DNA of 64,000 nt from a bacterium. Lineage in GTDB: Bacteria > Bacillota > Clostridia > Oscillospirales > CAG-272. Location of the stretch: NCBI GenBank assembly GCA_963627065.1, contig CAVGAA010000001.1:71628-135627 (forward strand). Reading direction: 5' to 3'. Under the pieces are notes generated by a model, which made no database searches, was not told the origin of the DNA, and saw only the letters and a list, made by a program, of their open reading frames with translations. The first letter of the stretch is position 1, and the number at the start of each line of letters is the position of its first letter. Shown piece after piece: positions 18,984-63,755 of the stretch. A program made the translations under genes and the position numbers.

Positions 18984-19006
18984 ATTATGATTGAAAGGAA
19001 ATAATC

Positions 19007-32680: not shown

Positions 32681-32789
32681 GAGCATTGCGAATTATTGCA
32701 TTTTGCTATTGCAATTTCTACATTATTTAATAAGATAATGATAATTTTTTTATTTTCTTGCTGTGATAAAATAATGGAGGGCTATTTTG

Positions 32790-33809: not shown

Positions 33810-34078
33810 GTAATGTCTATCAATTAAATAATAATATTATTATAAAAGGTATCAATGACAAGTATTGGGCATTGGATACAAACACAGGTGCACAATTCCG
33901 ATTGAATGAATTATCATTTGATATTTTGTCTTTGACAAACGGTAATAACTCAGTTGATTACATCGTTGAACAGCAATTTGCAAAATATTCTGTAAAGAAA
34001 GAACTCCTAATTCGTGATATTCTTTCTTTTCTTGAAACAGCCTTGAATAAGGGGCTTATTTCAAAGAAAAAGGAATAA
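33794..34078 (+). CDS. PqqD-family peptide chaperone (RiPP recognition element)
   Basis: 94 aa: FRLNELSFDILSLTNGNNSVDYIVEQQFAKYSV...ILSFLETALNKGLI, a PqqD-like pattern. AGGAGG SD lies upstream and the gene overlaps the maturase gene by 16 nt. Confidence 0.8.
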   Translation: MLEKLSNVYQLNNNIIIKGINDKYWALDTNTGAQFRLNELSFDILSLTNGNNSVDYIVEQQFAKYSVKKELLIRDILSFLETALNKGLISKKKE

Positions 34079-34084
34079 TGATAT

Positions 34085-35275: not shown

Positions 35276-35280
35276 AAGCA

Positions 35281-36204
35281 ATGATTTTTAATAACGATAT
35301 TCTAAAAATCACCAATAATAAACGGGATTTTTATTCTCCAATTATAAGTGCGTTAGTTGAAACTAAATCTATAGAATTCTTTTTATCAAAAGGATTTCAT
35401 CTGTTTGCGTTACCAATTATGAATGATGCAGTTGCTACGAAAGAAAAAACGATTCAATTTAATTTTGACCATCAAAATATCGAATTAAATAGCAGTCAAG
35501 CAATGCGAATCTCAGCTTTATCTGCCTTTTATAATCAAGTTTTTTCAGTGAGTAAATGTTTTAGAAATGAAAAAAACGTTGATTTTTCGCATTTATCGGA
35601 ATTCACGATGTTAGAAGCAGAGTTTTCAATCGAAAAGGAGACTGATATTTTCGATTTGATAGAGAATTATTTAGCGTTTATTATTGACTGGTTTGACACA
35701 TTTATTGTTGAACAAAATTTGACAGATGTTTTTAAGCATCGTACTGTTTCGTTTCCCATAGAGCAAATTAATTATGATTTGTTGCTAAAAAGTGAGAAAA
35801 TCAAAGGCAAGAAGTTAATTTTTGATCATTTTGATTTTTGCGATATTGATGTAAGTGCGGATATCGATAAACCCATCTTTATTGTTAATTATCCGTGCGT
35901 TGGTTCTTGGCGGGCCAAACGCAAAGATAACTTACATGCTTTTTTGTACAACTTGATTCTACCATGCGGCTTTGGAGAATTAGTTGAGTGTTCAATTAGG
36001 GAAATCGATTATGCTTTTTATAAGCAGAAATTTGATTACTTAGGAATGTCCGAGTCTTATTCTTGGTACTTAGATGCTATGCGTATTAATCACGGTATAA
36101 AAGCTGGCTTTGGTCTTGGTTTAGAGCGACTTGCAGCTTGGCTTATGGATTTAAAAGCTATTGGCGATCAATTAATCTTTCCAAGATTGCCAGGAGGACA
36201 ATAA
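35281..36204 (+). CDS. Stand-alone class II (IIb, Asp/Asn/Lys-RS-like) aminoacyl-tRNA-synthetase catalytic core without an anticodon-binding domain
   Basis: Motif 2-like VSKCFRNEKNVDFSHLSEFTMLEAEF and motif 3-like GFGLGLERLAAWLMDL...LIFPRLPGG. At about 307 aa it is too short to hold the N-terminal OB fold. Alternative TTG start at 35260. Confidence 0.7.
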   Translation: MIFNNDILKITNNKRDFYSPIISALVETKSIEFFLSKGFHLFALPIMNDAVATKEKTIQFNFDHQNIELNSSQAMRISALSAFYNQVFSVSKCFRNEKNVDFSHLSEFTMLEAEFSIEKETDIFDLIENYLAFIIDWFDTFIVEQNLTDVFKHRTVSFPIEQINYDLLLKSEKIKGKKLIFDHFDFCDIDVSADIDKPIFIVNYPCVGSWRAKRKDNLHAFLYNLILPCGFGELVECSIREIDYAFYKQKFDYLGMSESYSWYLDAMRINHGIKAGFGLGLERLAAWLMDLKAIGDQLIFPRLPGGQ

Positions 36205-36206
36205 AA

Positions 36207-37010
36207 ATGTCAATTGAATTAGAAAGATGCACTATGGCCTTACATAGGATGGTTTATGAAATGAATCGTAAGGGCATAGAGCAATCAAGAATTACTAAAT
36301 GTGCTACGCAATTACTAATGAGCGGAGTTTCCCAAAATTCAATATCGACGGAAATTGTTCAAAAATGTATTGAAACTCAAAACAATGATGGCGGTTGGGT
36401 TGCAGTTGTTGACACAATATGGAATGCAAAGTTTTTATCATTTTTTAGTAAAACCAACGAAAATATTGTTCATGCATATCGATATTTAAATGATAACAAA
36501 GTGGATTTTGGTTTTGGAAGGTCTAAACGTGATATAGGTAGAATTCCGGTAACTGGTATCGCTTATTACTTACATCCTCAATTGGCAACTTTGGATGGAT
36601 TAAGATGGTTGGAAAATCTTTGGATTTCAGAAAAGAATGGACTAACATATAAAGCAGCTTATACATTGATGGCTTTCAAACGCACAAATTATAAGCCGTT
36701 AAATATTGGGGTTATAGAAGAAGCTGTTCTTTGGTTATTGTCTCAGCAGGAAAAAGATGGTGGCTTTTCTCCTTGGAAACATCATCCTGTAGGGACCAAT
36801 GTTTATTGTACGGCTCTTTCGTTGATTGGCTTACTTCAATACAATGAGTTTATTCCTCAAGCTAATGCTGCTATTGAGGCAGCTTATCAGTATATTTATA
36901 AAAATCAGTTAATCAATGGACTGTGGCCGTATCATGAATTAGAAGATGGTGGGGCATGGGGAATGCAAGCTATGTTTCAATATGAAAGCGAGTACGCACA
37001 TGAGTTCTAA
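36207..37010 (+). CDS. Prenyltransferase / squalene-oxidase-repeat (alpha-alpha toroid) protein
   Basis: Repeats QNNDGGWVAV, QQEKDGGFSPW and NGLWPYHELEDGGAWG. GGAGG SD precedes the ATG at 36207. Confidence 0.65.
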   Translation: MSIELERCTMALHRMVYEMNRKGIEQSRITKCATQLLMSGVSQNSISTEIVQKCIETQNNDGGWVAVVDTIWNAKFLSFFSKTNENIVHAYRYLNDNKVDFGFGRSKRDIGRIPVTGIAYYLHPQLATLDGLRWLENLWISEKNGLTYKAAYTLMAFKRTNYKPLNIGVIEEAVLWLLSQQEKDGGFSPWKHHPVGTNVYCTALSLIGLLQYNEFIPQANAAIEAAYQYIYKNQLINGLWPYHELEDGGAWGMQAMFQYESEYAHEF

Positions 37011-38253
37011 AAAATCCATTTTATTGGTATACCCTAAACCGCAATTTGATAAGAATCCGCGATTCGGTTTTTCAATTCAGCTGATGCAATTAGCTACAAT
37101 TTTGAAGCAAAAGTATAAAGTATTTTTTTTGGATTATTCTTATCTCGATTTTGATGAAAGCAAATTTCGCTTATATTTGTTAAATAATAACATATCGCAT
37201 ATTGTCGTTGAATTTGATTCTTTTTCACTAAAAAGATCTGAGAATTATGAAAATGCACTCTTATTACTTAATATTGCAAGGGAAAGAAAAATAATTTCAG
37301 TTGCTTTTGGTAATGATTGCATAATGGATAATTCAAATAGCATTTGTGCGGATTACATTATTAGAGAAGATCCATTATTAAAAATCGGGAAAATCTTTAA
37401 TGTTTTTTCTGATGAGTTGACGGAAATGGAATATGATGTTATTCCATTTCCAGATCGCGAATTGCTGAAAACTAATCCGTTTTTCTTAAAGAATTCTAAT
37501 TCTACACTTATTCGTACATCTGAAGGCTGTTTAAATACATGTTCTTTTTGTCAGCGTCGGGGGTGGCAAAAGAAATATAAAGCACATAATATTGAATATG
37601 TTATACGAGAATTTGAATATTTAAAGGACCACAATTACCAAAATGTATGGGTTGCAGATGATAATTTTACCTTCGATTTAAGTCGAGCAAAGAAAATTCT
37701 TTCAATTCTTTCGCAACAAAAATTAACTGTTGGAATGAATCTAGCGATTAGTAGCTGGACAAGAATAGATGAAGATTTATTACAGTTGGCACAACAGGCA
37801 AATGTAAAAATAATTAGTATGGGTATAGAATCTGCTAATTATGAAATATTGGACTTTTATAACAAAAAAATAGATTTACAAAGGACTAAACAGTTAATCG
37901 AATATGCAGATCTGCTTGGTATTTATACTATTGGAAATTTTATCATAGGAGCACCTATGGAAACAATGGTAACTATTGAAAATACCTTTGACTATATAAT
38001 GTCCACTAAATTAGATCAAATTAACATTAAAACTTTAGATTATATGCTCGGGTCAGTATTGTATGAAAATTTGCCAAAAAAGGTAGAGCACCACTATTTT
38101 GCATGCTCGGAAAATGGGTTGTGCAGTTTTTCACTAAATGAATTATCGAAAATTAAGAAAGATTTTCTTACAAGATTTAATTTGGAGAGGCAAGATTTTC
38201 GAATGGAAAAAATAAAAAAATTTGGACTTCCATATATTCCTTTAAAGATATAA
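37000..38253 (+). CDS. B12-binding-domain radical SAM enzyme (class B type)
   Basis: The N-terminal Rossmann-like segment (ILLVYPKPQ...KVFFLDYSY) is followed by RTSEGCLNTCSFCQ (CX3CX2C). It overlaps the previous gene by 11 nt. Confidence 0.75.
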   Translation: MSSKKSILLVYPKPQFDKNPRFGFSIQLMQLATILKQKYKVFFLDYSYLDFDESKFRLYLLNNNISHIVVEFDSFSLKRSENYENALLLLNIARERKIISVAFGNDCIMDNSNSICADYIIREDPLLKIGKIFNVFSDELTEMEYDVIPFPDRELLKTNPFFLKNSNSTLIRTSEGCLNTCSFCQRRGWQKKYKAHNIEYVIREFEYLKDHNYQNVWVADDNFTFDLSRAKKILSILSQQKLTVGMNLAISSWTRIDEDLLQLAQQANVKIISMGIESANYEILDFYNKKIDLQRTKQLIEYADLLGIYTIGNFIIGAPMETMVTIENTFDYIMSTKLDQINIKTLDYMLGSVLYENLPKKVEHHYFACSENGLCSFSLNELSKIKKDFLTRFNLERQDFRMEKIKKFGLPYIPLKI

Positions 38254-38254
38254 T

Positions 38255-39532
38255 ATGAATTATTGGATTTTGGGGTTAGGTGCTGTTGCGCAATGTTTTT
38301 TAAAACTTTTATGTGCTAACGAATCAATAGATGCTTCACATGTATATTGCATCGAGCCTGATTGCAAAAAAGTCTCAATTTTTGTAAAATTAGGTTTTAT
38401 TAAAAAAAACTTTATATGCAATGCGTTAAATAGATATAATTATGCAACGGTTTTACAATCATTGATTCCAAAGGATTATTGTATCGATTTTTCTAGTTTA
38501 ACCAATTCTAAAGATTTACTAGTTTTTTGTGCGAAAAAGAAAGTTCATTACCTTTCCGTAGCAGATACTTTTTGGAAAGATGAGTCAGAGAATTTCGGAG
38601 CAAGCCACATGGATTATTTGAATATAATTTCTTCTTTTCCTAATAATCCAACGTCGATTATACAATTTGGTATGAATCCAGGATTGGTTTCATCATTTGC
38701 AAAGCAAAGCATAAAAATGCTCTGGTCAATCAATACTTTGACAGAATCAAAAAATGCCATTAAGCAGCAGGATGAGTTTTGTATTGCAAAAAAAGCATCA
38801 ATCTTAAATATAAATAAAATTTGTATCTGTGATTGGGACATGCAACATTCCAATCTCAATATTGAGAAAAGCACTATTTACTCGACATGGAACATTGATG
38901 CTTTTGTGAATGAAGCAACAACTCGTCCGGAATATCCTGCAGGCATTCCCAATGACGACAACATGGATGAGATAGTAGATTTTAATCTTAACTATCGAAG
39001 GAAAAATGTTCCTGCTTATGCAGCTATGCATGAATTAGTTTCACCTATAAACAGTACTAATGGCTTTATTATGACGCATGAAGAAACATACTCTATTGCA
39101 CATTATTTGTCGTATAGAGAATCTGATAAAATAACTTATAGGCCTGAAGTTATATTTGTATACAAACCATGTAATGAATCAATATTTTCTATTAAGAATC
39201 TATTGAAGGCCGGTTTTGATAGATTAGATTCATTTCAAAAACACATTTTAGTTCCTAGAGAAATCATTTCAGGTGGAGAGTATGTAGGGGTAACATTATA
39301 TCAAAATGATATACCTATATTTTACTTCGGAAATGATTGCGAAAAAAGTGGTATAGAAGGCTCTAATATAACTGTATTTCAAGTCGCTGTTTCGTGTTTT
39401 GCTGCATTGAAATACATAGAAACGCATGCGGATTTTGGAATACTTTTCCCGGAAGATGTTGATGATGATTTTATTATCGATATTGTTCGTCAATTTATGA
39501 GGTTGAATTATGGATTTATTAAAAAAGCATAA
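38255..39532 (+). CDS. Saccharopine-dehydrogenase / homospermidine-synthase-like NAD(P)-binding protein
   Basis: N-terminal ILGLGAVAQ Rossmann loop. FGMNPGLVSSFAKQSI resembles the GANPGLVSHFVKQA motif recalled for homospermidine synthases. It starts 1 nt after the preceding stop. Confidence 0.5.
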   Translation: MNYWILGLGAVAQCFLKLLCANESIDASHVYCIEPDCKKVSIFVKLGFIKKNFICNALNRYNYATVLQSLIPKDYCIDFSSLTNSKDLLVFCAKKKVHYLSVADTFWKDESENFGASHMDYLNIISSFPNNPTSIIQFGMNPGLVSSFAKQSIKMLWSINTLTESKNAIKQQDEFCIAKKASILNINKICICDWDMQHSNLNIEKSTIYSTWNIDAFVNEATTRPEYPAGIPNDDNMDEIVDFNLNYRRKNVPAYAAMHELVSPINSTNGFIMTHEETYSIAHYLSYRESDKITYRPEVIFVYKPCNESIFSIKNLLKAGFDRLDSFQKHILVPREIISGGEYVGVTLYQNDIPIFYFGNDCEKSGIEGSNITVFQVAVSCFAALKYIETHADFGILFPEDVDDDFIIDIVRQFMRLNYGFIKKA

Positions 39533-39990: not shown

Positions 39991-40889
39991 TACTTTTTCT
40001 CTTTGTACAACCGGTATTGCACGGGACTCATACCGTTCAGATTCATTTAAATTCTTTCGTTGTTGTAGTACGCAATGTACTCCTCCAATTTCTCAATGAA
40101 TCCCCGAGGGGATTCAAATTTTTCGCCGTAAAACATCTCAACTTTCAGCCGTCCGAAGAAATTTTCCATGACACTGTTGTCAAGGCAATTCCCTTTCCGT
40201 GACATACTCTGCGTGATGTGATGCTCGGCGAGAAGCCTCTGGTACTCGGGGTGCTGGTACTGCCAGCCTTGGTCGGAATGGAACAGCGGTCTTGCATCCG
40301 GCGGGAGTTTTTCGAACAATCCTGCCAACATATCCTTGACTTGTTGCAGGTTGGGACTCAGGGAAATAGTGTAGGCGAGGACCTCACGGTTAAATAAATC
40401 GAGGACGAGCGAGAGGTAGATTCTTACATCGAAGACCTTAAACTCCGTGATGTCTGTTGTTATCTTTTCGAACGGCTTATCTGCGTGAAAATCCCTGTTC
40501 AGCACGTTGTCGGCAGTCTTTCCGATCGTGCCTTTGTAGGAATTATAACTGCCGTTTTTGCTCTGTTTTCCCTTCAAACCGAGCATTTTCATCAGTTTCA
40601 GGACGGTTTTGTGGTTGATTTTGAAGTTTTCTGACCGCATGACAGCCAAGATTCGTCTGTAACCGTATCTGCCTTTGTTGTCGTCGAAGATTTTCTTGAT
40701 TGCCGTTTTTTCCTCTTGGTACTTGTCCTTGCCTTTTTGTTTCAGGTAATAGTAGAACGTACTCCTTGCCATTCCGGAAACAGCCAGCAGATCTTTCAGC
40801 GGAAACCATTGCCTCAGCTCAGCAGGTAAGGTCACATCCGGAAGCTCCGAGTACACCGAATAAACGGAATCTTTCCCGTCGGTCGTCAC
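39990..40889 (-). pseudogene. IS3-family transposase OrfB (integrase core) with a premature stop
   Basis: RSTFYYY, GYRRI, HSDQGWQY and GNCLDNSVMENFFG motifs. TAA at 40049-40047 interrupts ...YYNNERI*MNLNGMSPVQYRLYKEKK*, cutting off the conserved SPxxYR tail. Confidence 0.75.
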
Positions 40890-43346: not shown

Positions 43347-44114
43347 GTGGCGGTCGGTTTGACAAACATAACGGAATATTTCGGGCGGAATTTTCTGTCT
43401 GAATTGTCAACGCTTGGCGGTTACGGGACGGGCGGATCGGACTACGAACTTTTCCGAGCCTTTTGCAGGTCCTGCGTGCAGAATCAAACCTCGCCCGATG
43501 CGGATTTCGTGCGGAAAAATCTCCGTGCCTCTCTTCAAATCGATGTGCCGATTGATATCGCACACTGTGACGAAATCTGGCAAGAAACCGCCGAAAAACT
43601 GCTTGTAAACAGTTATATGCAACCGCTCGAAACGCCGGATTTACCACTGCCGAATCTTCCCGAATATTTCGGAAATCTGATTGACTGTCCGCCACTCGAA
43701 AATGCGGACGGATGGACAAAATGGAAAGCCGAAACCAACGAAAAAATCTCAAATTTTGATGCCGTGCAAGTCAGACTGCCGTCCGATTTTGTGGCAAAAA
43801 AGCCGAATCTGTGGCAGGTAGAACAACTCCTCACCGGCAAAATCGAAGATGATAATCTCGCACGTTCACAACAGATTTTTTATCTGTCAAGCGTTTGTTC
43901 CGAGAAAATACGACTTTGCCTTGAAACCGAATGCACGGTGACAGAAGTCTTCAAAATTTTGTCTTACATTGCCTTGCGACAAGGATCAATTCCGCCGATT
44001 TGCTGGAAGTGGTCGGAACAAACTGCCCCGACAAGAAATATTCTCGTATCGGTTGCAAAACTTGTCAAAACATCGGTCGGCGTTCCGCCGATCATGACTT
44101 TTGTCGAAATTTAG
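43347..44114 (+). CDS. Hypothetical protein, family not recognised
   Basis: 255-aa ORF. The start is GTG at 43347 or, more likely, TTG at 43359, which is 8 nt after AAGGTGG. Confidence 0.5.
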   Translation: MAVGLTNITEYFGRNFLSELSTLGGYGTGGSDYELFRAFCRSCVQNQTSPDADFVRKNLRASLQIDVPIDIAHCDEIWQETAEKLLVNSYMQPLETPDLPLPNLPEYFGNLIDCPPLENADGWTKWKAETNEKISNFDAVQVRLPSDFVAKKPNLWQVEQLLTGKIEDDNLARSQQIFYLSSVCSEKIRLCLETECTVTEVFKILSYIALRQGSIPPICWKWSEQTAPTRNILVSVAKLVKTSVGVPPIMTFVEI

Positions 44115-44627: not shown

Positions 44628-44825
44628 AATTTCCTCAAAAACTTATTTTTCTGTCGTAAAGTTATTTTAGAATACCACAATTTTCGGTGCGTTGCAAGTA
44701 TTTTTCATAAAAAAGCATAAAATCCGATAAAATTTACAATTTATAGTACTTTTAGCAAAGAAAATATGCTATAATATTATGATAGTTATCTTTGACGGCA
44801 CCGAGCGGTGCGGAAAGGACGGTTT

Positions 44826-47591
44826 ATGTCTCTTATCACAAAAATTTTCGGAACTTACAGTCAGCATCAACTCAAAAAAATGAATGCGATTGCAAACCGT
44901 GTAGATGCACTGGCGGACACCTATGCAAAAATGACGAATGCGGAATTGCGTGCGACAACCGATAAACTCCGTGCAAGATACGAAGCAGGGGAAACACTCG
45001 ATGAATTACTCCCCGATGCCTTTGCGGCTGTCCGTGAGGCGGATGACCGTGTACTCGGAAAACGCCCGTTCCGTGTGCAGATCGTCGGCGGAATTGTCTT
45101 ACATCAAGGACGAATTGCAGAAATGAAAACCGGTGAAGGCAAAACGCTTGTCGCAACTCTGCCGGCATACCTCAATGCCCTGACCGGAAACGGCGTGCAT
45201 ATCGTAACGGTCAACGATTATCTCGCCCGTGTGGGTGCGGAGGAAATGGGACGTGTCTATGAGTTTATGGGACTCACGACCGGTCTTGTCGTTCACGGTC
45301 AGTCGAACGAAGAAAAGCACAATGCATACAATGCCGACATTACTTATGGAACGAACAACGAATTCGGTTTTGACTATCTGCGTGACAATATGGTCGTTTA
45401 CAAAGAGCAAATGGTACAGAGAGGTCACGCATTTGCAATCGTGGACGAGGTTGACTCCATTCTCATCGATGAGGCGAGAACTCCGCTCATTATTTCTGGA
45501 GCGGGCGAGCAGGTCAGCGACCTTTACGAAAGAGCCGATCGTTTGGTCCGTTCCATGAAAAAATTCGTCATTAAGGAACTTGACGACAAAGAAACGCACG
45601 ATGACATCGATGCGGACTATATCGTCGATGAAAAAGCAAACAATGCGGTTTTGACCGCAAAAGGTTCGAGAAAAGCCGAAGAATTTTTCGGTATCAACTG
45701 CCTCTCGGACGAAGAAAATATTATGATTGCCCACCACGTCAACCAAGCCATTCGGGCTTACGGTTGTATGCACCGTGACGTCGATTACGTTGTCAACGAA
45801 AACGGCGTCATCATTGTCGACAGTTTTACGGGACGGCTTATGCCGGGCAGACGTTATTCGGACGGTCTGCATCAGGCAATCGAGGCAAAAGAGGGCGTCC
45901 AGATTCAGAAAGAGAACAAAACGCTCGCAACCATTACTTTCCAGAATTATTTCCGTATGTACGGTAAACTTTCCGGTATGACCGGTACGGCACTTACGGA
46001 AGAGGACGAATTCAGAGAAATTTACAATCTTGACGTCATTGAAATTCCGACCAACAAACCGATGATCCGTATCGATCACCCCGATTCGGTCTACCGCAGT
46101 ATGTCGGGAAAATATCACGCCATTGTCGAGCAGGTCAAAGAGTGCCATGCCAAAGGGCAGCCGGTACTTGTCGGTACGATTTCAATCGATAAATCCGAAG
46201 AACTTTCCAAAATGCTCCGCAACGCAGGCATTCCGCATACCGTTCTGAACGCAAAATATCACGATAAAGAAGCCGGAATCGTCGCTCAGGCAGGTAAATT
46301 CGGTGCGGTTACCATTTCCACCAATATGGCAGGGCGTGGTACGGATATTCTGCTCGGCGGTAACCCCGAATTTATGGCAAAAGAAGAAATGCGTGCCAAA
46401 GGAATTCCCGAGGAGTATATCGCCCGTTGTACCGGTATGACCGATACCGATGATGAAGAACTCATTTCTGCCCGCAAACTTTTTCGTGAATTGGTCGATA
46501 AACACAAAACGGAAATTGAACCCGAAGCCGAAAAAGTGCGTGCGGTCGGCGGACTCTTTATTTTGGGTACGGAACGGCACGAAAGCCGACGGATCGACAA
46601 CCAGTTGAGAGGGCGTTCCGGTCGTCAGGGCGATCCCGGAGAATCGAAATTTTACCTTTCTATGGAAGACGACCTCATGCGTCTGTTCGGAACGGAACGT
46701 TTTCAGGGCATTGTCGATGCACTCAAAATGCCGGAAGATATGCCGATCGATGCTAAAATTCTTTCCAACGCAATCGAACGGGCTCAAAAACGAATCGAAG
46801 GTGCAAATTTCAAACGCAGAAAGTACGTTCTGTCCTATGACGATGTCATGAACCAACAGCGGACAATCATTTACAATCAACGCAGAGAAGTACTTGACGG
46901 TGAAAATATCTCGCCCACAATTCAGCGTATGATTACCGAAACGGTGTCCGAAATGGTGACCTTCTTTACGGGCGGAGATGCCCCTGTCCACGATTGGAAT
47001 TTTGACGGTCTGCGGAATCATTTTGCAGGTTATCTGACAAGCGAGGACGATTTCCGTTACAGCGATGACGAAATGAAAAAATTGACCAAGGAAGAATTGA
47101 CCGAATCGCTTACCAACCGTGCCTTGAATCGCTATGAAGAGAAAGAAAAACTCTTCGGAGCGGATGTCTTCCGTGAAGTGGAACGTGCCGTTCTGCTCCG
47201 TTGCGTCGACTCGGCATGGATGGAACACATTGATACAATGGAAGACCTCAAAAATAACGTCGGACTGCAAGCCTACGCCCAGAGAGATCCCGTCACCGAA
47301 TATCGGATTCAGGGAGCGGAACTTTTTGACGGTATGGTCAACGACATTCGCCAAAACACCGTTCGTATGATTTTGTCGGTCGTGCCGAGACAACAGGAAA
47401 ACATCCGCCGTGTGCAGATTGCAAAGCCGACATCCGAAGGCTTCGATAACGGAGAGAACAAACGTACGGTTGTTCGCAAAAAGGTACCTGCCGTCGCAAA
47501 AGAAACAGTCGGAAGGAACGATCCTTGCCCCTGCGGTAGCGGTAAAAAATACAAAAACTGTTGTATGAGAAAGAATTCTCAAAATCAATAA
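44826..47591 (+). CDS. secA: Preprotein translocase ATPase SecA
   Basis: MKTGEGKTLVATLPAYLNAL, DEVDSILIDEARTPLIISG and the C-terminal zinc motif CPCGSGKKYKNCC. Confidence 0.97.
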   Translation: MSLITKIFGTYSQHQLKKMNAIANRVDALADTYAKMTNAELRATTDKLRARYEAGETLDELLPDAFAAVREADDRVLGKRPFRVQIVGGIVLHQGRIAEMKTGEGKTLVATLPAYLNALTGNGVHIVTVNDYLARVGAEEMGRVYEFMGLTTGLVVHGQSNEEKHNAYNADITYGTNNEFGFDYLRDNMVVYKEQMVQRGHAFAIVDEVDSILIDEARTPLIISGAGEQVSDLYERADRLVRSMKKFVIKELDDKETHDDIDADYIVDEKANNAVLTAKGSRKAEEFFGINCLSDEENIMIAHHVNQAIRAYGCMHRDVDYVVNENGVIIVDSFTGRLMPGRRYSDGLHQAIEAKEGVQIQKENKTLATITFQNYFRMYGKLSGMTGTALTEEDEFREIYNLDVIEIPTNKPMIRIDHPDSVYRSMSGKYHAIVEQVKECHAKGQPVLVGTISIDKSEELSKMLRNAGIPHTVLNAKYHDKEAGIVAQAGKFGAVTISTNMAGRGTDILLGGNPEFMAKEEMRAKGIPEEYIARCTGMTDTDDEELISARKLFRELVDKHKTEIEPEAEKVRAVGGLFILGTERHESRRIDNQLRGRSGRQGDPGESKFYLSMEDDLMRLFGTERFQGIVDALKMPEDMPIDAKILSNAIERAQKRIEGANFKRRKYVLSYDDVMNQQRTIIYNQRREVLDGENISPTIQRMITETVSEMVTFFTGGDAPVHDWNFDGLRNHFAGYLTSEDDFRYSDDEMKKLTKEELTESLTNRALNRYEEKEKLFGADVFREVERAVLLRCVDSAWMEHIDTMEDLKNNVGLQAYAQRDPVTEYRIQGAELFDGMVNDIRQNTVRMILSVVPRQQENIRRVQIAKPTSEGFDNGENKRTVVRKKVPAVAKETVGRNDPCPCGSGKKYKNCCMRKNSQNQ

Positions 47592-47621: not shown

Positions 47622-48329
47622 ATGGGATTCGGTTGGTTACTGCTCGGATATGTAATTTCCTTTCTTTTGTCGTCCGTTGCGGGAAAACTCAATATCGCTT
47701 TCCTTGCCAACCTCATCGGTTATCTGTTGATGTTGAAAGGCTTGTCGGAACTGCGGAAATATCAAAAAGAATTTTCACTGTCTTTCATTTCTGTTTGTGC
47801 CTTGATTCCGTTTGCCGTTTGGAACGGACTTGACGAACTCGGCGATCTTCTTTTGTGGAATCTGCCGTTTTTAACCGATTTGTCTTTGTCGGTTGTCGCT
47901 TGGATTCGCTTTGCGGTCGTTCTGTTCTTCCAATTCACGCTTTACTTTGCAGTGGCAAAACTTGCAAAAACGGTCGACCTGCCCAATACTGTCCGACAAT
48001 CGGTCTTTAATACCGTGATAGCGGTCGGCTATTCGTCACTTTATGTTGCCATCAGTCTTCCCGCATTGGCATCGGTACAAAATCAATTCGGTTTGGCTCT
48101 GACAATTTTCCGACTCTTTTGGATCGTTTGCGACATTTGCCTCTTGATTTCCTGCTGTAAAAACATCTGTCCGGAAGGGGAGGAAGATCCCAAACCGAAA
48201 GAATATCGCCTGAAATTCCTCAACAAAATGAACGAATCGTTCGAGAATAATTTCAACCGTGCCGCTAATTCCACACGGAATGCCAAAGAAGAATCGCTCC
48301 GCCGAAAGCGTGAGAAAAAACGGAGGTAG
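47622..48329 (+). CDS. Hypothetical polytopic membrane protein with a basic C-terminal tail
   Basis: AAAGGAG SD lies upstream, about six hydrophobic segments are present, and the start is 31 nt after the secA stop. Confidence 0.6.
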   Translation: MGFGWLLLGYVISFLLSSVAGKLNIAFLANLIGYLLMLKGLSELRKYQKEFSLSFISVCALIPFAVWNGLDELGDLLLWNLPFLTDLSLSVVAWIRFAVVLFFQFTLYFAVAKLAKTVDLPNTVRQSVFNTVIAVGYSSLYVAISLPALASVQNQFGLALTIFRLFWIVCDICLLISCCKNICPEGEEDPKPKEYRLKFLNKMNESFENNFNRAANSTRNAKEESLRRKREKKRR

Positions 48330-48332
48330 GCG

Positions 48333-49688
48333 ATGTACAAGACCAAAAACTTCGGTTTTACCGCAATTCTTGTCGGCGTTTGCTTTCTCTGCGATCCGAT
48401 AATAGGACTACTCGATTTCCTGCCGGACCTTGTCGGTTGGATACTCATTTGCATCGGCATTTCGTCATTAGCCGACTTGAATGACGATCTCATGACCGCA
48501 GGAACCTGCTTTTGCAAAATGCTCTTGGTAGGTATCGGTCGCATTTTAGCCGAACTGCTCGTGTCTGTTTTTCTGAATCGAATGTCCGAGTCGCTCAATC
48601 CGTATGAAACCGCCGTTTGGACGTTGCTTTTGTCCTTCGCACTTGCGGTTATCGAAATCTGCCTGCTCCTGCCGGCGTTTCGCTCGTTTTGGCATGGGAT
48701 TGCAACGCTTTCCGAATGTAGTGGCAACCCAAATGCTTTAACTTTACCTGACCGCAAAGGCAGGACTTTGTGTGAAAAAATGCAAGCCGTCACGACTGCG
48801 TTTGTTATTTTCCGTGCGGTTCTGTCGGTTCTACCGGAAACCGTCACACTGACCGTTTTCGCCGGCGAAAATACCTATAATACTTCGCTTTATCAATTTC
48901 GTGGACTCTTCCGCACCGCATCGGCGATTCTTGTCGGAATTGCAGGGCTTCTGTTCCTCATCGCATGGATTCGTTTCTACATTGCGGTAAAAAAAGAAAC
49001 CGCATGGCTTTTCGGATTGCGTGAGAAATACGAAAGGGAAGTCCTTCCGAAAACCGAAATGCTCCGAAATCGCAAAATCGACTCCGCATTTTCCTTTTTC
49101 CGCATCGGCATTTTGCTCAGTACCAATCTGTCACTCCTCTATTACGAGATTCTGCCCGATTGGCTTGCTGTTTCGATACTCCTTGTCGGTTGTTTCCTGC
49201 TCGGAAATCTCATGCAGAACCGCCCTCCGCTCACAGCGGTCGGTGCGGTGACGGTTATGGTCGGCATTGTGAGAACTGTTTTTCAAGTCCGTTATCTCAA
49301 AAATTACATTCCGAAAGATGCACTCCATTTGCCCGAGGCGTACGAATCCTATTTTCCGGTCTGCGTATCGGCAACCGCCGAGGCAATTTTAACCGCACTT
49401 TTCATAATCGTTTTAACGATTTGCATTTTGAAAATCGCTATGAATCTTCTCCCTGCCGATGACGGCATCGGGAAAACCGTCGAACGCCGTGACCGCCGTT
49501 TCGGCAACTGCCGTGCAATTCTCGTGTCGGTCTTTGCGTGCCTCTCTGCAGTGGCAAAGATTGCCGAAACATTTTTGCAGGCAAAATACGGTTGGATTTG
49601 GTTGGTTCAGACCGCATTGTCGATCATCACATTTGCAATTTTTTCAGGCTTGCTCGGCAATATACAAGACAAGGTTGAAAGGAGATAA
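48333..49688 (+). CDS. Hypothetical polytopic membrane protein (451 aa)
   Basis: GGAGG SD lies upstream, about 10 hydrophobic segments are present, and the start is 4 nt after the previous stop. Confidence 0.6.
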   Translation: MYKTKNFGFTAILVGVCFLCDPIIGLLDFLPDLVGWILICIGISSLADLNDDLMTAGTCFCKMLLVGIGRILAELLVSVFLNRMSESLNPYETAVWTLLLSFALAVIEICLLLPAFRSFWHGIATLSECSGNPNALTLPDRKGRTLCEKMQAVTTAFVIFRAVLSVLPETVTLTVFAGENTYNTSLYQFRGLFRTASAILVGIAGLLFLIAWIRFYIAVKKETAWLFGLREKYEREVLPKTEMLRNRKIDSAFSFFRIGILLSTNLSLLYYEILPDWLAVSILLVGCFLLGNLMQNRPPLTAVGAVTVMVGIVRTVFQVRYLKNYIPKDALHLPEAYESYFPVCVSATAEAILTALFIIVLTICILKIAMNLLPADDGIGKTVERRDRRFGNCRAILVSVFACLSAVAKIAETFLQAKYGWIWLVQTALSIITFAIFSGLLGNIQDKVERR

Positions 49689-49692
49689 AACC

Positions 49693-51927
49693 GTGTTCGC
49701 AATCGATAAAATGCCACAAAACCTGTTGGATTTGCTCCCGACCTACCACATCGATGCGGATGCACCGGAACTTTCCTGCTTTGTTGACCGCAACCGTGAG
49801 GGGAAACCTGCAAAAATTTGGCTTTTGGCAGATAAAAACTACTTTTATATGCTCACGGAAAAAGCCGAAGCTTTCGATGTAGAGCAGTACGCTCTCTCGG
49901 ATCTTTCGAATTTTCAAGTCGAAGAACGCCTTTCAACGGCAACCCTTATCGGTGACCGAAAGGGTGAAACAATCCTTTTCGCAACCTTTACCAATACCTG
50001 CCTCGTGTCGGTGCGGATGTTCGTCCGCTATTTTGCCAAACTTCTTGACGGCGAAAAAATCGAAATTGACGAAGAAGACCTGCCCGACGAACGCTTTTGC
50101 CCGATTTGCGGAATGCGTTACCCCGATCCGAACCGCAAACTATGTCCGCATTGCGTGGACAAAGGGCAACTTTTCCGCAGAACGTGGAATTTTTTCTTAC
50201 CTTATAAAAAGAGTTTAATGGTGCTTTTGGCATCGCTCATTCTCTTAACCGCCACAAGCATTTTAGCTCCGTATCTGTCAAGCGGATTTTTCTTTGACGA
50301 GGTTATCGATACGGACGGCAAATTTGCCGGTGCATTGCTCCTCGTGCTGTTTCTCATTGCGGGAACAAAACTCATCCGAGCTTTTGCAAGTATGCTCAAC
50401 AACTGGCTCTCGTCAAATGTTGCCGCACAAATGACATATAGCCTCAAAAAAACGATTTTCAACGCCATTGAACGTCTCTCGCTCAGCTTCTTTACCGGTC
50501 GGCAGACGGGGGGACTCATGACGCAGGTCAATGAGGATGCCAACACCATATACGAATTTTTCTGCGACGGCATTCCGTATCTCATTGTCAATGTTGTGCA
50601 GGTTATCGTGTTGGTTGTCCTGCTCCTGACCATTCAACCGATTCTCGCATTTTTCGCACTACTGCCCGTACCGCTTTTCTTTCTCATTATACGAGCTATG
50701 TTCAAAAGCGAGCGGAAACTGCACGCCAAACGCTTTTCCAACTCCTCAAAAATGAGCGGTTTTCTCGCCGATGTTCTGTCCGGCATGCGTGTCGTCAAGG
50801 CATTTTCGCAGGAAAAAGAAGAAATACGTCGCTTTTCCGGCTATAACCGCAATCTGGCGGACAGCGGACGAAAATTGCAGATTTATCACAATCTTGTCGG
50901 CGGTATAGCGGGGGCATTGCTTTTTCTCGGCAATATTATCGCATGGGGTGTCGGCGGTTGGATGGTCATGAACGATTTCGGCGGTATGACTTACGGCAGA
51001 CTCCTCACTGTCATTTCCTATATGAATATGATTTATTCTCCGCTGTTTTTCTTCTCGGGACTGACACAGCGGTTTGCCGATTGCACCAACGCCCTCAACC
51101 GTCTTTATGAAATTATGGATGCCGAACCGGATGTCCGTGAAAGTCCGGATGCATTAACTCCCGAAAATCTCGGTAGCGAGGTCGTTTTTGATCATGTTTC
51201 GTTCTCCTATAACAAGGGCAGACGGGTGATAGACGATGTCAGTTTCCGTGTTCCGTCCGGTGGCGTGCTCGGAATTGTCGGACACACGGGGGCGGGAAAA
51301 AGCACCCTTGCAAACCTTTTGATGCGACTGTACGATGCGGAAGAAGGGGAGATCCGAATCGGCGGAATTCCGGTCAAAAATTTATCTTTCCGCTCGATTT
51401 ATAAAAATGTCGCAATCGTTTCGCAAGAAACCTATCTCTTTATGGGAACGATACTCGACAACATTCGTTACGCCAATCCGAATGCCACTTATGACGAAGT
51501 GATCGAGGCTTCCCGCACGGCAGGGGCTCACGATTTTATTGTCACTTTACCTGACGGCTACCATACGAGAGTCGGTTTCGGCTTTACCGAACTTTCGGGT
51601 GGCGAAAAACAGCGGATTTCCATCGCGAGAGCGATTCTGAAAAATCCGAAAATTTTGATTCTTGATGAGGCAACCGCCGCAATGGACACGGCAACCGAAC
51701 GCAGAATTCAAAACGCACTTTCGAAATTGATTGTCGGCAAAACCACCATTATGATAGCCCACAGACTTTCCACTTTGCGTGATGCCGACAGTCTGATTGT
51801 CATCGAACACGGAAAAGTCGTCGAAAGCGGAACACACAAAGAACTGCTTGCAAAAGAAGACGGTGTTTACAACAGACTTTACACCTTGCAATTGGAGGCA
51901 CTTCGCAGTGCCGGAATTGCGGAATAG
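49693..51927 (+). CDS. ABC exporter (permease/ATPase) with an N-terminal cytoplasmic extension of about 200 aa that includes a zinc ribbon
   Basis: GTG at 49693 follows AAAGGAG (ATG alternative at 49711). Motifs: CPICGMRYPDPNRKLCPHC, Walker A GHTGAGKST, LSGGEKQR and ILILDEATAAMD. The track start at 49459 would overlap the previous gene. Confidence 0.85.
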   Translation: MFAIDKMPQNLLDLLPTYHIDADAPELSCFVDRNREGKPAKIWLLADKNYFYMLTEKAEAFDVEQYALSDLSNFQVEERLSTATLIGDRKGETILFATFTNTCLVSVRMFVRYFAKLLDGEKIEIDEEDLPDERFCPICGMRYPDPNRKLCPHCVDKGQLFRRTWNFFLPYKKSLMVLLASLILLTATSILAPYLSSGFFFDEVIDTDGKFAGALLLVLFLIAGTKLIRAFASMLNNWLSSNVAAQMTYSLKKTIFNAIERLSLSFFTGRQTGGLMTQVNEDANTIYEFFCDGIPYLIVNVVQVIVLVVLLLTIQPILAFFALLPVPLFFLIIRAMFKSERKLHAKRFSNSSKMSGFLADVLSGMRVVKAFSQEKEEIRRFSGYNRNLADSGRKLQIYHNLVGGIAGALLFLGNIIAWGVGGWMVMNDFGGMTYGRLLTVISYMNMIYSPLFFFSGLTQRFADCTNALNRLYEIMDAEPDVRESPDALTPENLGSEVVFDHVSFSYNKGRRVIDDVSFRVPSGGVLGIVGHTGAGKSTLANLLMRLYDAEEGEIRIGGIPVKNLSFRSIYKNVAIVSQETYLFMGTILDNIRYANPNATYDEVIEASRTAGAHDFIVTLPDGYHTRVGFGFTELSGGEKQRISIARAILKNPKILILDEATAAMDTATERRIQNALSKLIVGKTTIMIAHRLSTLRDADSLIVIEHGKVVESGTHKELLAKEDGVYNRLYTLQLEALRSAGIAE

Positions 51928-51939
51928 GAGGACAACGAT

Positions 51940-52551
51940 ATGATGGGACACGGACCTGCGGGAATGCCACCACCGCCCTCGGGCGGAGGAGGTCGGGGAG
52001 GCTTCGGCGGAGGCGAAAGACGCCACCGCTCGCATGACGATAACCGCCCGAAAACATTGGCGGAAATTTCCGTCACGGTGTGGCTGACACCCGAAAATGC
52101 CAAATTCAGCAAAAAAAACGGACTGCTGTATCTCACTTTGGATGGCAAAGAAATGCGTGTCATTTTGGCACGGGAATTTCCGTACGAACTCCAATGGGAC
52201 TATATATCGGTCCTTGACGATGAGCGGAGCGAGGTCGGAATCATTCGTTCCACATCGCTTTTTACGGGTGACGAGCGACAACTCATCGAGGACGAACTCC
52301 GCCTGCGTTACTACGCACCGAAAATTACTAAAATTACAAAAGTGCGTGAAAAATACGGCTTTTCCTATTGGACGGTCTTCACATCGGATGCCGGAAAAAT
52401 AACCTTTACGGTGCAGGATGCATACCGCAGTATTTTCCACATCGGCGAAAATGCGGTCACAATCTGCGATGTCGACGGCAATCGCTACGAAATTCCGAAT
52501 GTCGAGGACCTCGACAAGTCAAGCAGAAAACTGCTCGATTTGTACATTTGA
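51940..52551 (+). CDS. DUF1854-family protein with a Gly/Pro-rich N-terminus
   Basis: VILAREFPYEL...ISVLDDERSEVGII...LRYYAPKITKITKV...DVDGNRYEIPNVEDLDKSSRKLLDLYI matches the recalled DUF1854 pattern. The gene sits between two ABC genes. Confidence 0.7.
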   Translation: MMGHGPAGMPPPPSGGGGRGGFGGGERRHRSHDDNRPKTLAEISVTVWLTPENAKFSKKNGLLYLTLDGKEMRVILAREFPYELQWDYISVLDDERSEVGIIRSTSLFTGDERQLIEDELRLRYYAPKITKITKVREKYGFSYWTVFTSDAGKITFTVQDAYRSIFHIGENAVTICDVDGNRYEIPNVEDLDKSSRKLLDLYI

Positions 52552-52560
52552 GGTGACGGA

Positions 52561-54795
52561 ATGCGACTTCTGCGCAAAAAAAAGAAAGAACCGTCGGCGT
52601 ACGATCGCTTGACGGCTCTCGATGCAAGTTACAAAAAGACAAAGCCGTCGGCGGTTCTGCTCACAAATCTGTCCCCCGATATTCCGCAAAAAACGGACGA
52701 AATTTTCCTCATTTTGACCGAAGAAAACCTCGTTATCCGTGAGAAAAACGGAAAAACACGGGAACTGCCACTGTCGGAACTCGAAAATATTCGCTCGTCC
52801 GGCGGTGTCGGCAGTGTCGAAATCGTTGTCGGCAAAAAAGACGGTAGTGAATGCCTTTTGGCACGTGCGACGGCAAAATTCTCCAAAGAATCCGCCGATT
52901 TTATCAAAGCGGTCAACCGCTCTCTGCGGAGAAAATCCGGCATTCTGTCGGATCGGCAGGGGAATGTCCCCACGCAAAATATACCGAAAGTCTCGGTTAA
53001 ATCCTCATTTTTACGGCTTTTGAAGTTGGCAAAGCCGGAGTTCTTTTTTATCGCATTCACCGTTTTGCTTTTTGTGGTATCGACCGGTGCCAATTTGATT
53101 ATACCGATCATCAATCGCCATATGGTTGACGATTATATCGAAAATCCGGAGGGAGCCACTTTTCTGATAGGCTTTATCGGCGTTGTTCTGACACTTTTGG
53201 CTGTTAATCTTGCAGGCAGAATTTTCCGCATCTTCCGCACATGGTTTCTCACACTTGCGGGAAATCGCCTGATTGTACGACTGCGTGATATGGTTTTTCG
53301 CCGCATTCAGGAACTTTCTATCGGAAGCGTTTACCGCATGACATCCGGCGAGTTGATGAAACGGGTGAACGGTGATACGACACGTATCAAAAATTTCATC
53401 ATTGATGTTTTGCCGTCCATACTCGAACAGGGACTTCTGCTCATCGCAGTGTCTGCCTATCTCGTGTCGGTTGACTGGCGTGTCGCCCTCATGGTTTTGT
53501 TGCCTGCACCGATACTTACTTTGGCAATGCGTATCGTCTGGCGGTATTTTCAGCAATTGGCAAGAAGAACGAGAGATCTCAACGCACGGGGCAATGCCGT
53601 ACTGCATGATGTTTTTTCCGGAATTCGTGTCGTCAAAGCCTATGGAATGGAGAAGCGGGAGGAAAATCGGTTTGTCTCCATGGCGGAAGACGAAAGGGAT
53701 GCCCAAATCAAGCAGGAAAAAGTCTGGGCGATTCTTATGCCGATTCTGAATTTCCTCATGGGCATCGGCGAGTATGTACTTTTGTATTTTGTCGGACGGC
53801 AGATGCTTGCCGGAACGATGTCGGCAGGCGAAATGTCACAGCTTTCCAGTTATGCAAGTATGATTTACACTCCGCTTGCGATACTGGTCAAAATTCCGAG
53901 GCAAGTGGCACTCGTGTCCGTATCGCTTACAAATGTTTTCGGACTGCTCGATGCACCTATCGAAATTGCGGACAGTGCCACACCGAAATTGCCCGAACAT
54001 TTGAACGGCGATGTCGAAATCGATCATGTATCGTTCGGCTACGGTAACGGAGACGAAATTCTTCACAACATCAATCTGCATATCAAATCGGGAGAATTTA
54101 TCGGGCTTGTCGGTCGATCCGGCGTCGGAAAATCGACCTTGATCAATCTGCTTATGCGTATGTATGATGTGGACGACGGAGCAATCCGTCTGGACGGTGT
54201 CGACATCCGTGACATTCCGCAGGAGGAACTCCGGCGACATATAGGCGTTGTCTTGCAGGAAAACTTTCTCTTTGCCGGCAGTGTCTGGCAGAATCTTACT
54301 TACGCCAAGCCGAACGCCACACGGGATGAAGTCATCCGTGCCGCAAAATTTTCCGGTGCACACTCTTTTATCGTCAATTTACCGGACGGCTACAATACCT
54401 ATATCGGTGAGCGTGGCTATACTTTGTCCGGCGGTGAACGCCAGCGTTTGGCAATTGCCCGTGCATTGCTCCACGATCCGAAACTGCTTATTCTCGATGA
54501 AGCCACATCGGCACTCGACACCGAAACCGAAAAACTCATTCAGGATGCTTTGTCGATCCTCACGAAAGGCAGAACGACCGTCGCAATCGCACACAGGCTT
54601 TCCACTCTGCGTGGGGCTACAAGGTTGGTTGTTCTTGACGAAGGACAAGTTGCCGAAACCGGAACGCACGATGAACTCATGGAAAAGCACGGAATTTATT
54701 ACGGACTTGTTATGGCACAGCGGGAGATGTCTAAAATGACGAACGATCAAGAGGGGCTAAATATCGAAATGATGCCCGAAAATGAAAAATTTTGA
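52561..54795 (+). CDS. ABC exporter (permease/ATPase) with an N-terminal extension of about 160 aa paralogous to that of the 49693 gene
   Basis: GAGGTGA SD, Walker A GRSGVGKST, LSGGERQR and LLILDEATSALD. Confidence 0.85.
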   Translation: MRLLRKKKKEPSAYDRLTALDASYKKTKPSAVLLTNLSPDIPQKTDEIFLILTEENLVIREKNGKTRELPLSELENIRSSGGVGSVEIVVGKKDGSECLLARATAKFSKESADFIKAVNRSLRRKSGILSDRQGNVPTQNIPKVSVKSSFLRLLKLAKPEFFFIAFTVLLFVVSTGANLIIPIINRHMVDDYIENPEGATFLIGFIGVVLTLLAVNLAGRIFRIFRTWFLTLAGNRLIVRLRDMVFRRIQELSIGSVYRMTSGELMKRVNGDTTRIKNFIIDVLPSILEQGLLLIAVSAYLVSVDWRVALMVLLPAPILTLAMRIVWRYFQQLARRTRDLNARGNAVLHDVFSGIRVVKAYGMEKREENRFVSMAEDERDAQIKQEKVWAILMPILNFLMGIGEYVLLYFVGRQMLAGTMSAGEMSQLSSYASMIYTPLAILVKIPRQVALVSVSLTNVFGLLDAPIEIADSATPKLPEHLNGDVEIDHVSFGYGNGDEILHNINLHIKSGEFIGLVGRSGVGKSTLINLLMRMYDVDDGAIRLDGVDIRDIPQEELRRHIGVVLQENFLFAGSVWQNLTYAKPNATRDEVIRAAKFSGAHSFIVNLPDGYNTYIGERGYTLSGGERQRLAIARALLHDPKLLILDEATSALDTETEKLIQDALSILTKGRTTVAIAHRLSTLRGATRLVVLDEGQVAETGTHDELMEKHGIYYGLVMAQREMSKMTNDQEGLNIEMMPENEKF

Positions 54796-54813
54796 CCGTT
54801 TCTGCACATTTTA

Positions 54814-54849
54814 TGCGTATTTATCATACACTTTCTGCGTATTTATCAT
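54814..54849 (+). repeat. Tandem direct repeat TGCGTATTTATCAT x2 with a 22-bp period
   Basis: Copies at 54814-54827 and 54836-54849. The proximal copy ends 34 bp upstream of the -35 box at 54883. Confidence 0.9.
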
Positions 54850-54882
54850 GAAAAAATGACAAAAATTAGGGCAATTTTTCTA

Positions 54883-54911
54883 TTGACATTTTTTCAAATT
54901 TATGATATAAT
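54883..54911 (+). promoter_or_regulatory. Sigma-A-type promoter of the GH78-like gene
   Basis: TTGACA (54883-54888), a 17-nt spacer, then TATAAT (54906-54911). Confidence 0.65.
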
Positions 54912-62633: not shown

Positions 62634-63236
62634 TTAATTTTTTTGCGTAAAGTGCTTTTGTAGTTTCTGTCTTGCTCGGAATAGGGAATTGGAAACCGAT
62701 TTTTTGTCGGTATGCAACCGCTCTGCAATCTTGTCTGCCGAATCCCCCATAAAAAACAGCATCCAGACACGGTATTCGAAAGGCGACAATAAAGCCTCGA
62801 TTCTCCTGCAAACCTCCGCATAACTTTCCGCCTCGACCAAACGGTAAGCGGGATCGCTGTCGTCACCGGCAGGCAAATCGTCCGGATTGATTTCATCAAG
62901 TGAAACCGTATTTGCATCGTTTTTTTTGGAACGCAACAAACCTGTCAGGCGGTTTTCCATACAGATTTTTGCATACAGACCGAATGTAATGCCGTCACGC
63001 TTCGCGTCAAAACTTTGAATTGCGGAAGCAAACGCATCAATGGCAACCGAACGCAGATCCGCATCCGATTTTCCGCTCTTTGCATATTTTTCAACAAGTC
63101 CGTCAACCAAAGGAGCATACCCCCGAAAAAGTACCGCAAATGCATCGTCGTCACCGTCACGGGCAGAAAGAACCAACTTTTTGACCTGACTATCGGATTT
63201 TTTATCATTTTGAGATTCAACGGGATTCTGCGACAT
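62634..63236 (-). CDS. Sigma-70-family RNA polymerase sigma factor (regions 2 and 4 only)
   Basis: DDAFAVLFRGYAPLV...FGLYAKICMENRL matches region 2. SADKIAERLHTDKKSVSNSLFRARQKL matches the region 4 HTH. Start taken at MSQNPV (63236). Confidence 0.7.
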   Translation of the reverse strand: MSQNPVESQNDKKSDSQVKKLVLSARDGDDDAFAVLFRGYAPLVDGLVEKYAKSGKSDADLRSVAIDAFASAIQSFDAKRDGITFGLYAKICMENRLTGLLRSKKNDANTVSLDEINPDDLPAGDDSDPAYRLVEAESYAEVCRRIEALLSPFEYRVWMLFFMGDSADKIAERLHTDKKSVSNSLFRARQKLQKHFTQKN

Positions 63237-63755
63237 TTGATACCTTTCGAGGAAAAACGAACGAATTTTCTGCAACCTGCAACCCGAGCCAAAAGGGGGG
63301 ACGAATGCTAATGAAAATTCGTTACAATTTTCAATTTCACATTCTTTTAATATTATATCACATTTTTGTGTAATGTCAACTGTTTTTTGAAATAATTTTT
63401 TCACCGAACTTTTTGAAAATCGGAGTGTTTTTGTGAATTATAACCAAAAATGAACCTTTGATTTTGGCTAAAATTACCTGCATTTTTCGGATGCAATTGT
63501 CATTTTGCACAAATTCGAACGTAAAAGATTGTGTATTATTTTTGACGGTTTTCAAACGGTTTCCGGACACTTTTCGGAAGATTATAAGAAAGTAACCGTA
63601 AAAAATACGAAATATAACGGAAAATAGCCTGCTTTATCATTTTCAGATTGCAAATTTAACTTGCAAACTTTCGGAAGAATCGTCAAGCAGAACCGCTCCG
63701 ACAGAATGAAAAGCAAAAAATCCTACCAAAGCCCCATAAATTTGGCGAAAAGCCC

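Follow-up and report, generated by a model that had tools for sequence, protein, structure and literature searches.

We read the secA gene and the five genes behind it, in a 64,000-nucleotide stretch of bacterial DNA, as two evolutionarily separable units that were made contiguous in this lineage by the loss of an intervening gene, a reading to which we give slightly better than an even chance. The stretch, hereafter the window, covers positions 71,628 to 135,627 of contig CAVGAA010000001.1 (assembly GCA_963627065.1), from a CAG-272 bacterium of the Clostridia, order Oscillospirales. Unit 1 consists of secA and two genes for membrane proteins, here called M1 and M2. Unit 2 is the trio ABC1-DUF1854-ABC2, in which the genes of two ATP-binding cassette (ABC) exporters, ABC1 and ABC2, flank that of a DUF1854 protein. 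The proposal is built on gene structure, domain architecture, homology and synteny statistics. The genes concerned are:

44808..47591, + strand: secA (Pfam domains SecA_DEAD, SecA_PP_bind, P-loop_SecA, SecA_SW and SEC-C)
47622..48329, + strand: M1, 235 amino acids, ATG start with AGGAG upstream
48333..49688, + strand: M2, 451 amino acids
49693..51927, + strand: ABC1, 744 amino acids, GTG start with AGGAG 8 nucleotides (nt) upstream
51940..52551, + strand: DUF1854 protein, 203 amino acids
52561..54795, + strand: ABC2, 744 amino acids

The five open reading frames (ORFs) that an initial annotation of this DNA had placed behind secA were all recovered on the + strand at the same positions, 3-12 nt apart, and every peptide string quoted there was found. 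The successive spacers from secA to ABC2 measure 30, 3, 4, 12 and 9 nt. Each of the five starts is preceded by a Shine-Dalgarno sequence, and a search for terminators between the secA-to-ABC2 genes of the window gave no convincing one. Apart from tRNAs, Rfam at gathering thresholds reported nothing for the window or for seven related loci, and the M2-ABC1 spacer showed no riboswitch.

The separability of the units became apparent from their neighbourhoods in other genomes. A DUF1854 alignment was scanned against one genome per GTDB species, giving at least 547 genomes with a relative, and the best 80 loci were kept. Since the alignment was made from close sequences, the kept loci are biased towards Clostridia; all 80 are Clostridial, mostly from metagenome-assembled genomes (MAGs) of gut and rumen. 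An ABC1-type gene, a DUF1854 gene and an ABC2-type gene, always in that order, are present at every one of the 80 loci long enough to show the trio. Placement of DUF1854 between two ABC genes is thus indeed recurrent, as had been supposed. The order trmL(-)-secA-M1-M2-...-ABC1-DUF1854-ABC2 was found at 27 of the 80 loci and additionally at L001 and L002. At about 30 of the 80, counting those with enough upstream sequence, the trio stands without secA, M1 and M2, and its neighbours are varied and unrelated (GH106, a D-Ala-D-Ala carboxypeptidase, FAD synthetase, a short-chain dehydrogenase/reductase, a LUD-domain protein, bactofilin). The reverse situation, secA-M1-M2 without the trio, occurs at L003, where a convergent FtsX gene follows, and at L004-L006, where a hydrolase-like gene follows; these arrays harbour the two M2 homologues that have diverged furthest (30% and 26% identity). 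Synteny of the five genes holds at some loci and fails at others. We conclude that ABC1-DUF1854-ABC2 is an autonomous operon and that the link to secA belongs to M1-M2, not to the trio. Locus L091, from a single Clostridial genome, carries two full trios side by side on opposite strands, near asnA (7653-12806, +, and 14585-19631, -), both keeping the ABC1/ABC2 order; the DUF1854-ABC family is one that has diversified within genomes.

The junction between the units points in the same direction. M2 and ABC1 are 4 nt apart in the window and 240-330 nt apart in most relatives. In 24 relatives they are separated by a small gene that has a strong ribosome-binding site (L010-L043, for example L013:7384-7560 and L018:7314-7493), and a gene of this type also follows M2 at L003 (4031-4225). 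Its product of 41-70 amino acids consists almost wholly of Asn (51%) and Gln (26.5%), as in MQNNQNNNQNKYQNNNQNNNQ..., and some gene calls (P0131, P0227) fuse it in frame to M2. The Asn/Gln gene is absent from the window and from L001, L007, L008 and L020, and the tight packing of the five genes is therefore derived and specific to the sub-lineage of the window.

Upstream of the Asn/Gln gene lies a promoter that is conserved, G[ATC]ATAA and GCATA[CA]T separated by ~18 nt. It fits the B. subtilis consensus of forespore sigma-F/G promoters and is predicted from this motif to be of forespore type. The sigma-F/G promoters of C. difficile have been reported as very similar (PMC3789822). Against a background of 0.027 per kb, the motif occurs upstream of ABC1 at 23 of 53 loci, in 22 of them as the Asn/Gln gene's own. 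At most loci with the gene, the 5′ leader contains a palindrome that follows the pattern TTGTAATTCC-N-AATTACAA. Right after the stop codon, a GC-rich hairpin of ~6-9 bp (-10 to -16 kcal/mol; e.g. L013:7571-7594) is present in 23/23 sequences. Its stems differ in sequence while compensatory changes keep the pairing, an invariant TACAT and no T-run follow, and Rfam gave no match to it. RNAalifold on a MAFFT alignment of the spacers recovered 3 pairs only, the loops being out of register; folded individually, all 23 sequences gave the hairpin. At L003, where no trio is found downstream, the Asn/Gln gene after M2 is closed by a true bidirectional terminator; the gene therefore makes a product of its own rather than serving as a leader of the trio. 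A role of the ORF as attenuator leader of the trio was considered and found unlikely, both for this L003 terminator without a downstream gene and for the absence of the promoter motif from trios lacking the ORF. The poly-Asn/Gln gene of the relatives is an unusual object by itself.

In unit 1, the Pfam domains identify SecA as the canonical, full-length housekeeping copy, complete with the C-terminal SEC-C zinc motif. An accessory Sec system (SecA2/SecY2/Asp) was rejected: SecA has all canonical domains, and its gene is flanked by trmL, M1 and M2, secY2 and asp genes being absent there. At every locus bearing M2, secA lies immediately 5′ of M1-M2. By hydropathy M1 has ~6 hydrophobic or transmembrane (TM) segments, followed by a basic C-terminal tail, and M2 has ~11-12 TM segments. 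No Pfam or NCBIfam match above threshold was obtained for M1, with the window copy and three orthologues, and none for M2. Both are thus polytopic proteins of unrecognised family, as previously described. Their N-termini resemble each other (BLASTP E 1e-4; the profile comparison is weak). The M2 family counts 1191 representatives at E<=1e-3 in a 50%-identity library, 0 of them with a Pfam family, and has the conserved motifs D-x-LPD-x-[IV]-G-[WY], LADLN and NPYE. M1/M2 is an undescribed membrane-protein family of Clostridia. Residues 3-203 of M2 weakly match its residues 247-435 (E 7.6e-4), so that the protein may be an internal 6+6 duplication; its AlphaFold2 (AF2) model has a predicted local distance difference test score (pLDDT) of 79.5. 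M1 and M2 are presumably translated off the secA transcript and would reside at the membrane, acting with the Sec translocase or depending on it.

The proteins of unit 2 are organized as follows:

ABC1, residues 1-135: soluble N-domain
ABC1, residues 136-154 (window 50098-50154, + strand): zinc ribbon, then transmembrane domain (TMD) and canonical nucleotide-binding domain (NBD)
ABC2, residues 1 to ~150: N-domain homologous to that of ABC1, zinc ribbon deleted in this lineage
DUF1854 protein, residues 1-45: disordered Gly/Pro/Arg-rich tail (AF2 model)
DUF1854 protein, residues 46-203: soluble core of two beta-rich lobes with a helix ending each (AF2 model)

The assignment of both exporters to the ABC half-transporters was confirmed, with PF00664 (ABC_membrane) and PF00005 (ABC_tran) over the gathering score (1.3e-37 and 8.1e-32 in ABC1) and intact ATP-site motifs. 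ABC1 and ABC2 are 36% identical across TMD and NBD. The Walker A/B, Q-loop, signature and H-loop elements are canonical in both, and all 54-60 orthologues of either paralogue retain LILDEAT, IAHRLST and LSGGE[RK]QR. As anticipated, a soluble extension precedes TM1 in each exporter, the first 155-165 residues having no TM segment by hydropathy. Mutual similarity of these extensions had also been claimed, and it stood: although pairwise BLASTP is non-significant (E 4.4), hhalign comparison of profiles made from 54 ABC1 and 60 ABC2 sequences (53 and 59 of them orthologues from related loci) gave a probability of 99.1% and E 1.9e-18 over 134 columns. ABC1 orthologues (n=36) are conserved from residue 1, with a MFEIDRIP-type start, and C136, P137, C139, G140, C151 and C154 are invariant in them, as is the ribbon motif C-P-x-C-G-x2-Y-x4-R-x2-C-x2-C. 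A CPKCGRP...C..C ribbon is present in most ABC2 orthologues as well and is lost in the window, L008, L020, L026, L032 and L040. Its absence from the ABC2 of the window is therefore a secondary loss, and the earlier remark that only the first exporter has a ribbon applies to the window and not to the family. In L049, L061 and L074 the N-domain of ABC1 contains long low-complexity insertions (among them His/Asp-rich, Lys/Glu-rich and (GGP)n stretches), reminiscent of the Gly/Pro/Arg-rich tail of the DUF1854 protein.

The initial annotation had named start-codon artefacts, with true starts close to the first TM helix, as the condition that would undo these extensions. ABC1 does begin with GTG, and its longest ORF (822 amino acids) overlaps M2. 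However, AGGAG lies 8 nt 5′ of that GTG, the N-domains of ABC1 and ABC2 are homologous, that of ABC2 is conserved too, and the match of ABC1 to NCBIfam model NF052233 begins at residue 53. Conservation of ABC1 from residue 1 together with the invariant Cys4 motif refutes the artefact, N-terminal conservation extending over more than 50 orthologues, and we regard its chance as practically nil. Pfam scans of 72 N-domain sequences gave zinc-ribbon families only; the N-domain profile gave weak zinc-ribbon matches only among PDB sequences, and a word-index homologue search with the ABC1 N-domain gave no match. The N-domain profiles are not related to DUF1854 (hhalign probability <1%). As to a PH-like fold, raised as a question in the initial annotation, the bacterial PH-domain family PF03703 (bPH_2, gathering 22 bits) reached 13.7-15.5 bits on ABC2 residues 119-158, which lie outside the beta-rich part, and was found in 0/35 other members.

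The third protein of the trio matches PF08909 with 114 bits (cut-off 26.8, E 5.7e-33) over residues 73-200, in agreement with its earlier identification as DUF1854, and has no TM segment by hydropathy. Its AF2 model, made with a 57-sequence alignment, has a pLDDT of 84, rising beyond 90 in the core and falling under 50 for residues 1-33. An internal repeat was looked for and is not detectable. The Gly/Pro-rich N-terminus pointed out previously is real, the quoted peptide being located in the tail of residues 1-45; a Gly-rich tail is found in some relatives, including a Planctomycetota protein, but is not universal.

The trio is a Clostridial variant of a known, uncharacterised DUF1854-ABC family. 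The best NCBIfam model for ABC1 and ABC2 is NF052233 (472.9 and 516.1 bits, cut-off 880), whose match includes residues 53-736 of ABC1, and the best for the DUF1854 protein is NF052234 (77.4 bits, cut-off 150). NCBIfam labels both models "cyanophycin metabolism-associated", its name for the cphA-linked branch of the family. In Acidovorax and Cupriavidus, DUF1854 shows cofitness with cphA/cphA′ as well as with an ABC transporter, and DUF1854-ABC fusions have been reported (Price et al., bioRxiv 10.1101/072470). An activated-sludge study describes cphA-cphA-ABC clusters (PMC10687191). Price et al. was the one relevant text that a literature search for DUF1854/PF08909 returned, and none was found on cyanophycin export. 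Locus L088, taken as positive control, has cphA′ and cphA divergent from an ABC gene (785 amino acids) plus DUF1854. L088, the Planctomycetota MAG L089 and Clostridium L090 each have one ABC partner for DUF1854, with the N-domain and zinc ribbon alike, and the N-domain profiles match all three at E 1e-7 to 4e-15; the architecture therefore characterises the family at large instead of being a quirk of this locus. As defined in this analysis, a DUF1854-partnered ABC exporter has the N-domain and Cys4 ribbon before TM1 and is directly followed by a DUF1854 gene. ABC1 shows this architecture in full, and ABC2 keeps the N-domain without the ribbon. ABC1 and ABC2 lie equally far from the single-ABC relatives (34-40% identity), which makes the ABC1/ABC2 duplication an old one. 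In L090 (7723-10839) the single-ABC and DUF1854 pair is directly followed by a gene for a PII-like c-di-AMP receptor (CdAMP_rec).

We propose that unit 2 would be the two-paralogue, Clostridial form of the DUF1854-partnered ABC exporter. In the model, ABC1 and ABC2 would assemble into a heterodimeric exporter whose two ATP sites are both competent for catalysis. On the cytoplasmic face just before TM1, each subunit would present a soluble beta-rich domain followed, in the ancestral state, by a Cys4 ribbon. The soluble DUF1854 protein would dock from the cytoplasm as a subunit for cargo recognition or regulation. The most likely class of cargo would be a polar cytoplasmic polymer or peptide, because of the analogy with the cphA-linked relatives and with the N-terminal accessory domains of polypeptide exporters.

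The initial annotation had taken secA and the five genes as one dedicated export or envelope system, that is, one operon with a common substrate. The terminator-free gaps of 3-30 nt in the window agree with it, and so does the maintenance of the gene order at 27 of the 80 loci and in L001/L002 while M1 and M2 diverge to ~30% identity. But a single system has to accommodate the ~30 loci where the trio lacks secA, M1 and M2, the loci (L003, L004-L006) where secA-M1-M2 lacks the trio, and the separately promoted gene plus hairpin found between M2 and ABC1 in 24 relatives; moreover, secA is the canonical housekeeping copy. We consider such a system unlikely. A minor though real chance is left to the ABC pair being an ordinary MsbA/Sav1866-like multidrug or lipid pump, on which the N-domains and DUF1854 would act as regulators only, in the manner of the C-terminal regulatory domains found on some ABC ATPases. 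Scores of 290-436 bits were obtained with MsbA, SmdAB and multidrug models, adjacent pairs of half-transporter genes are common in Firmicutes, and the weak Foldseek matches of DUF1854 include regulatory domains of MalK, PotA and ModE (E>0.05, TM-score ~0.2). Yet the two proteins score best with NF052233 and not with a model of drug or lipid exporters, and both ATP sites are canonical, whereas the characterised heterodimeric drug pumps of Firmicutes have a degenerate one. The retention of N-domain, ribbon and DUF1854 partner from Proteobacteria through Planctomycetota to Clostridia likewise points to a specific shared function.

A bolder scheme, which we hold to be very improbable, would have DUF1854-type exporters carry nitrogen-rich unstructured polypeptides. 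In Proteobacteria with linked cphA these would be non-ribosomal polymers of the cyanophycin kind, and in the 24 Clostridial relatives the ribosomally made poly-Asn/Gln mini-proteins, whose gene lies directly 5′ of ABC1. M1/M2 and SecA would then belong to the same envelope pathway, and the window would be a reduced form from which the cargo gene and the ABC2 ribbon were lost. In a weaker variant, the Asn/Gln mini-protein could be a forespore-expressed amino-acid store, the Clostridial counterpart to the small acid-soluble proteins (SASP) of gamma type; Clostridia have been reported to lack gamma-type SASP (PMC3533761). As for the preferred reading, two units and a DUF1854-partnered exporter, several results weigh against it. 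Adjacency of the units at 27 of the 80 loci and L001 makes some functional coupling possible. The NF052233 and NF052234 scores lie well under the equivalog cut-offs, and therefore no function can be transferred from these models. The large ORFs of the 64-kb window include no Cyanophycin_syn protein, no cphA or recurrent synthetase cluster lies within 10 kb at the 80 Clostridial loci, and in Clostridia the trio has no linked gene for a cargo, a ligand or a synthetase. With Foldseek, the DUF1854 model had no PDB match at E<=0.001 (best E 0.018, TM-score <=0.21), and the M2 model had none either, a MATE transporter being the best (E 0.059, TM-score 0.20).

The DUF1854-ABC pair is a widespread "known unknown", with at least 547 species-level genomes for the Clostridial form alone, many of whose carriers are gut and rumen bacteria, and cofitness with cyanophycin-synthetase-like genes in two beta-proteobacteria was the only earlier functional hint for it. 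New for experimenters is a fixed family architecture, in which an exporter made of N-domain, Cys4 ribbon, TMD and NBD goes with a DUF1854 protein that is soluble and two-lobed. Clostridia would use the ABC1/ABC2 heterodimer without cphA, the secA link pertaining to another, equally uncharacterised membrane pair. For Sec biologists, the strict secA-M1-M2 synteny offers a candidate lineage-specific translocase partner.

Downstream of ABC2, the following feature marks the 3′ boundary of the gene unit:

54883..54911, + strand: sigma-70 promoter of the next gene, TTGACA-17-TATAAT with extended TG, 12/12 consensus matches

The gene opened by this promoter encodes a rhamnosidase-like glycosidase. In the spacer just 5′ of the promoter, the 16-nt sequence CTGCGTATTTATCATR occurs in two direct copies (54811-54826 and 54836-54851; 25 nt from start to start) and could be an operator. 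Elsewhere in the window, a low-GC island (32787-39532, +; ~33% vs ~47%), with an insertion-sequence integrase at 40047-40889 (-), looks like a biosynthetic cluster gained horizontally. It encodes two radical SAM enzymes (the first radical SAM/SPASM), an amidohydrolase-GNAT fusion, a TED/terpene-cyclase-like protein, a truncated class II aminoacyl-tRNA-synthetase-like protein and a saccharopine-dehydrogenase-like protein. Two ORFs of ~255 amino acids have no Pfam family (43347-44114, +, and 62634-63404, -), the first of them located between trmL and the gene for a MutS-domain-V protein.

Among known systems, the nearest structural neighbour of M2 is the MOP superfamily (MATE/Wzx), by virtue of ~12 TM helices and the weak 6+6 repeat in M2; several members are among the top Foldseek matches, but the best of these (E 0.059, TM-score 0.20) is non-significant. 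The ABC proteins share with polypeptide exporters of the PCAT and HlyB types a soluble cytoplasmic domain before TM1, and bacteriocin/HlyB models score 290-370 bits on their TMD-NBD part. In PCAT that domain is a C39 peptidase and in HlyB it is C39-like, whereas here the extension matches only zinc ribbons in Pfam, Peptidase_C39 matching neither ABC protein nor any of the 72 N-domain sequences; the window holds no precursor peptide gene. The heterodimeric exporters BmrCD, LmrCD, EfrCD and TM287/288 of Firmicutes and Thermotoga are likewise encoded by adjacent co-directional half-transporter genes, as is the ~36% identical pair described here. They have one degenerate ATP site and neither an N-terminal domain nor a DUF1854 partner, whereas in the present pair both ATP sites are canonical, with no non-consensus catalytic residue in either NBD. 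The closest parallel is the NF052233/NF052234 pair of the cphA/cphA′-linked beta-proteobacteria. There one ABC gene accompanies DUF1854, and here two paralogous ABC genes surround it, with no linked cphA, an ABC2 without ribbon and a Gly/Pro/Arg-rich tail on the DUF1854 protein; common to both are the N-domain, the Cys4 ribbon, a six-helix TMD, the NBD and a DUF1854 gene directly 3′.

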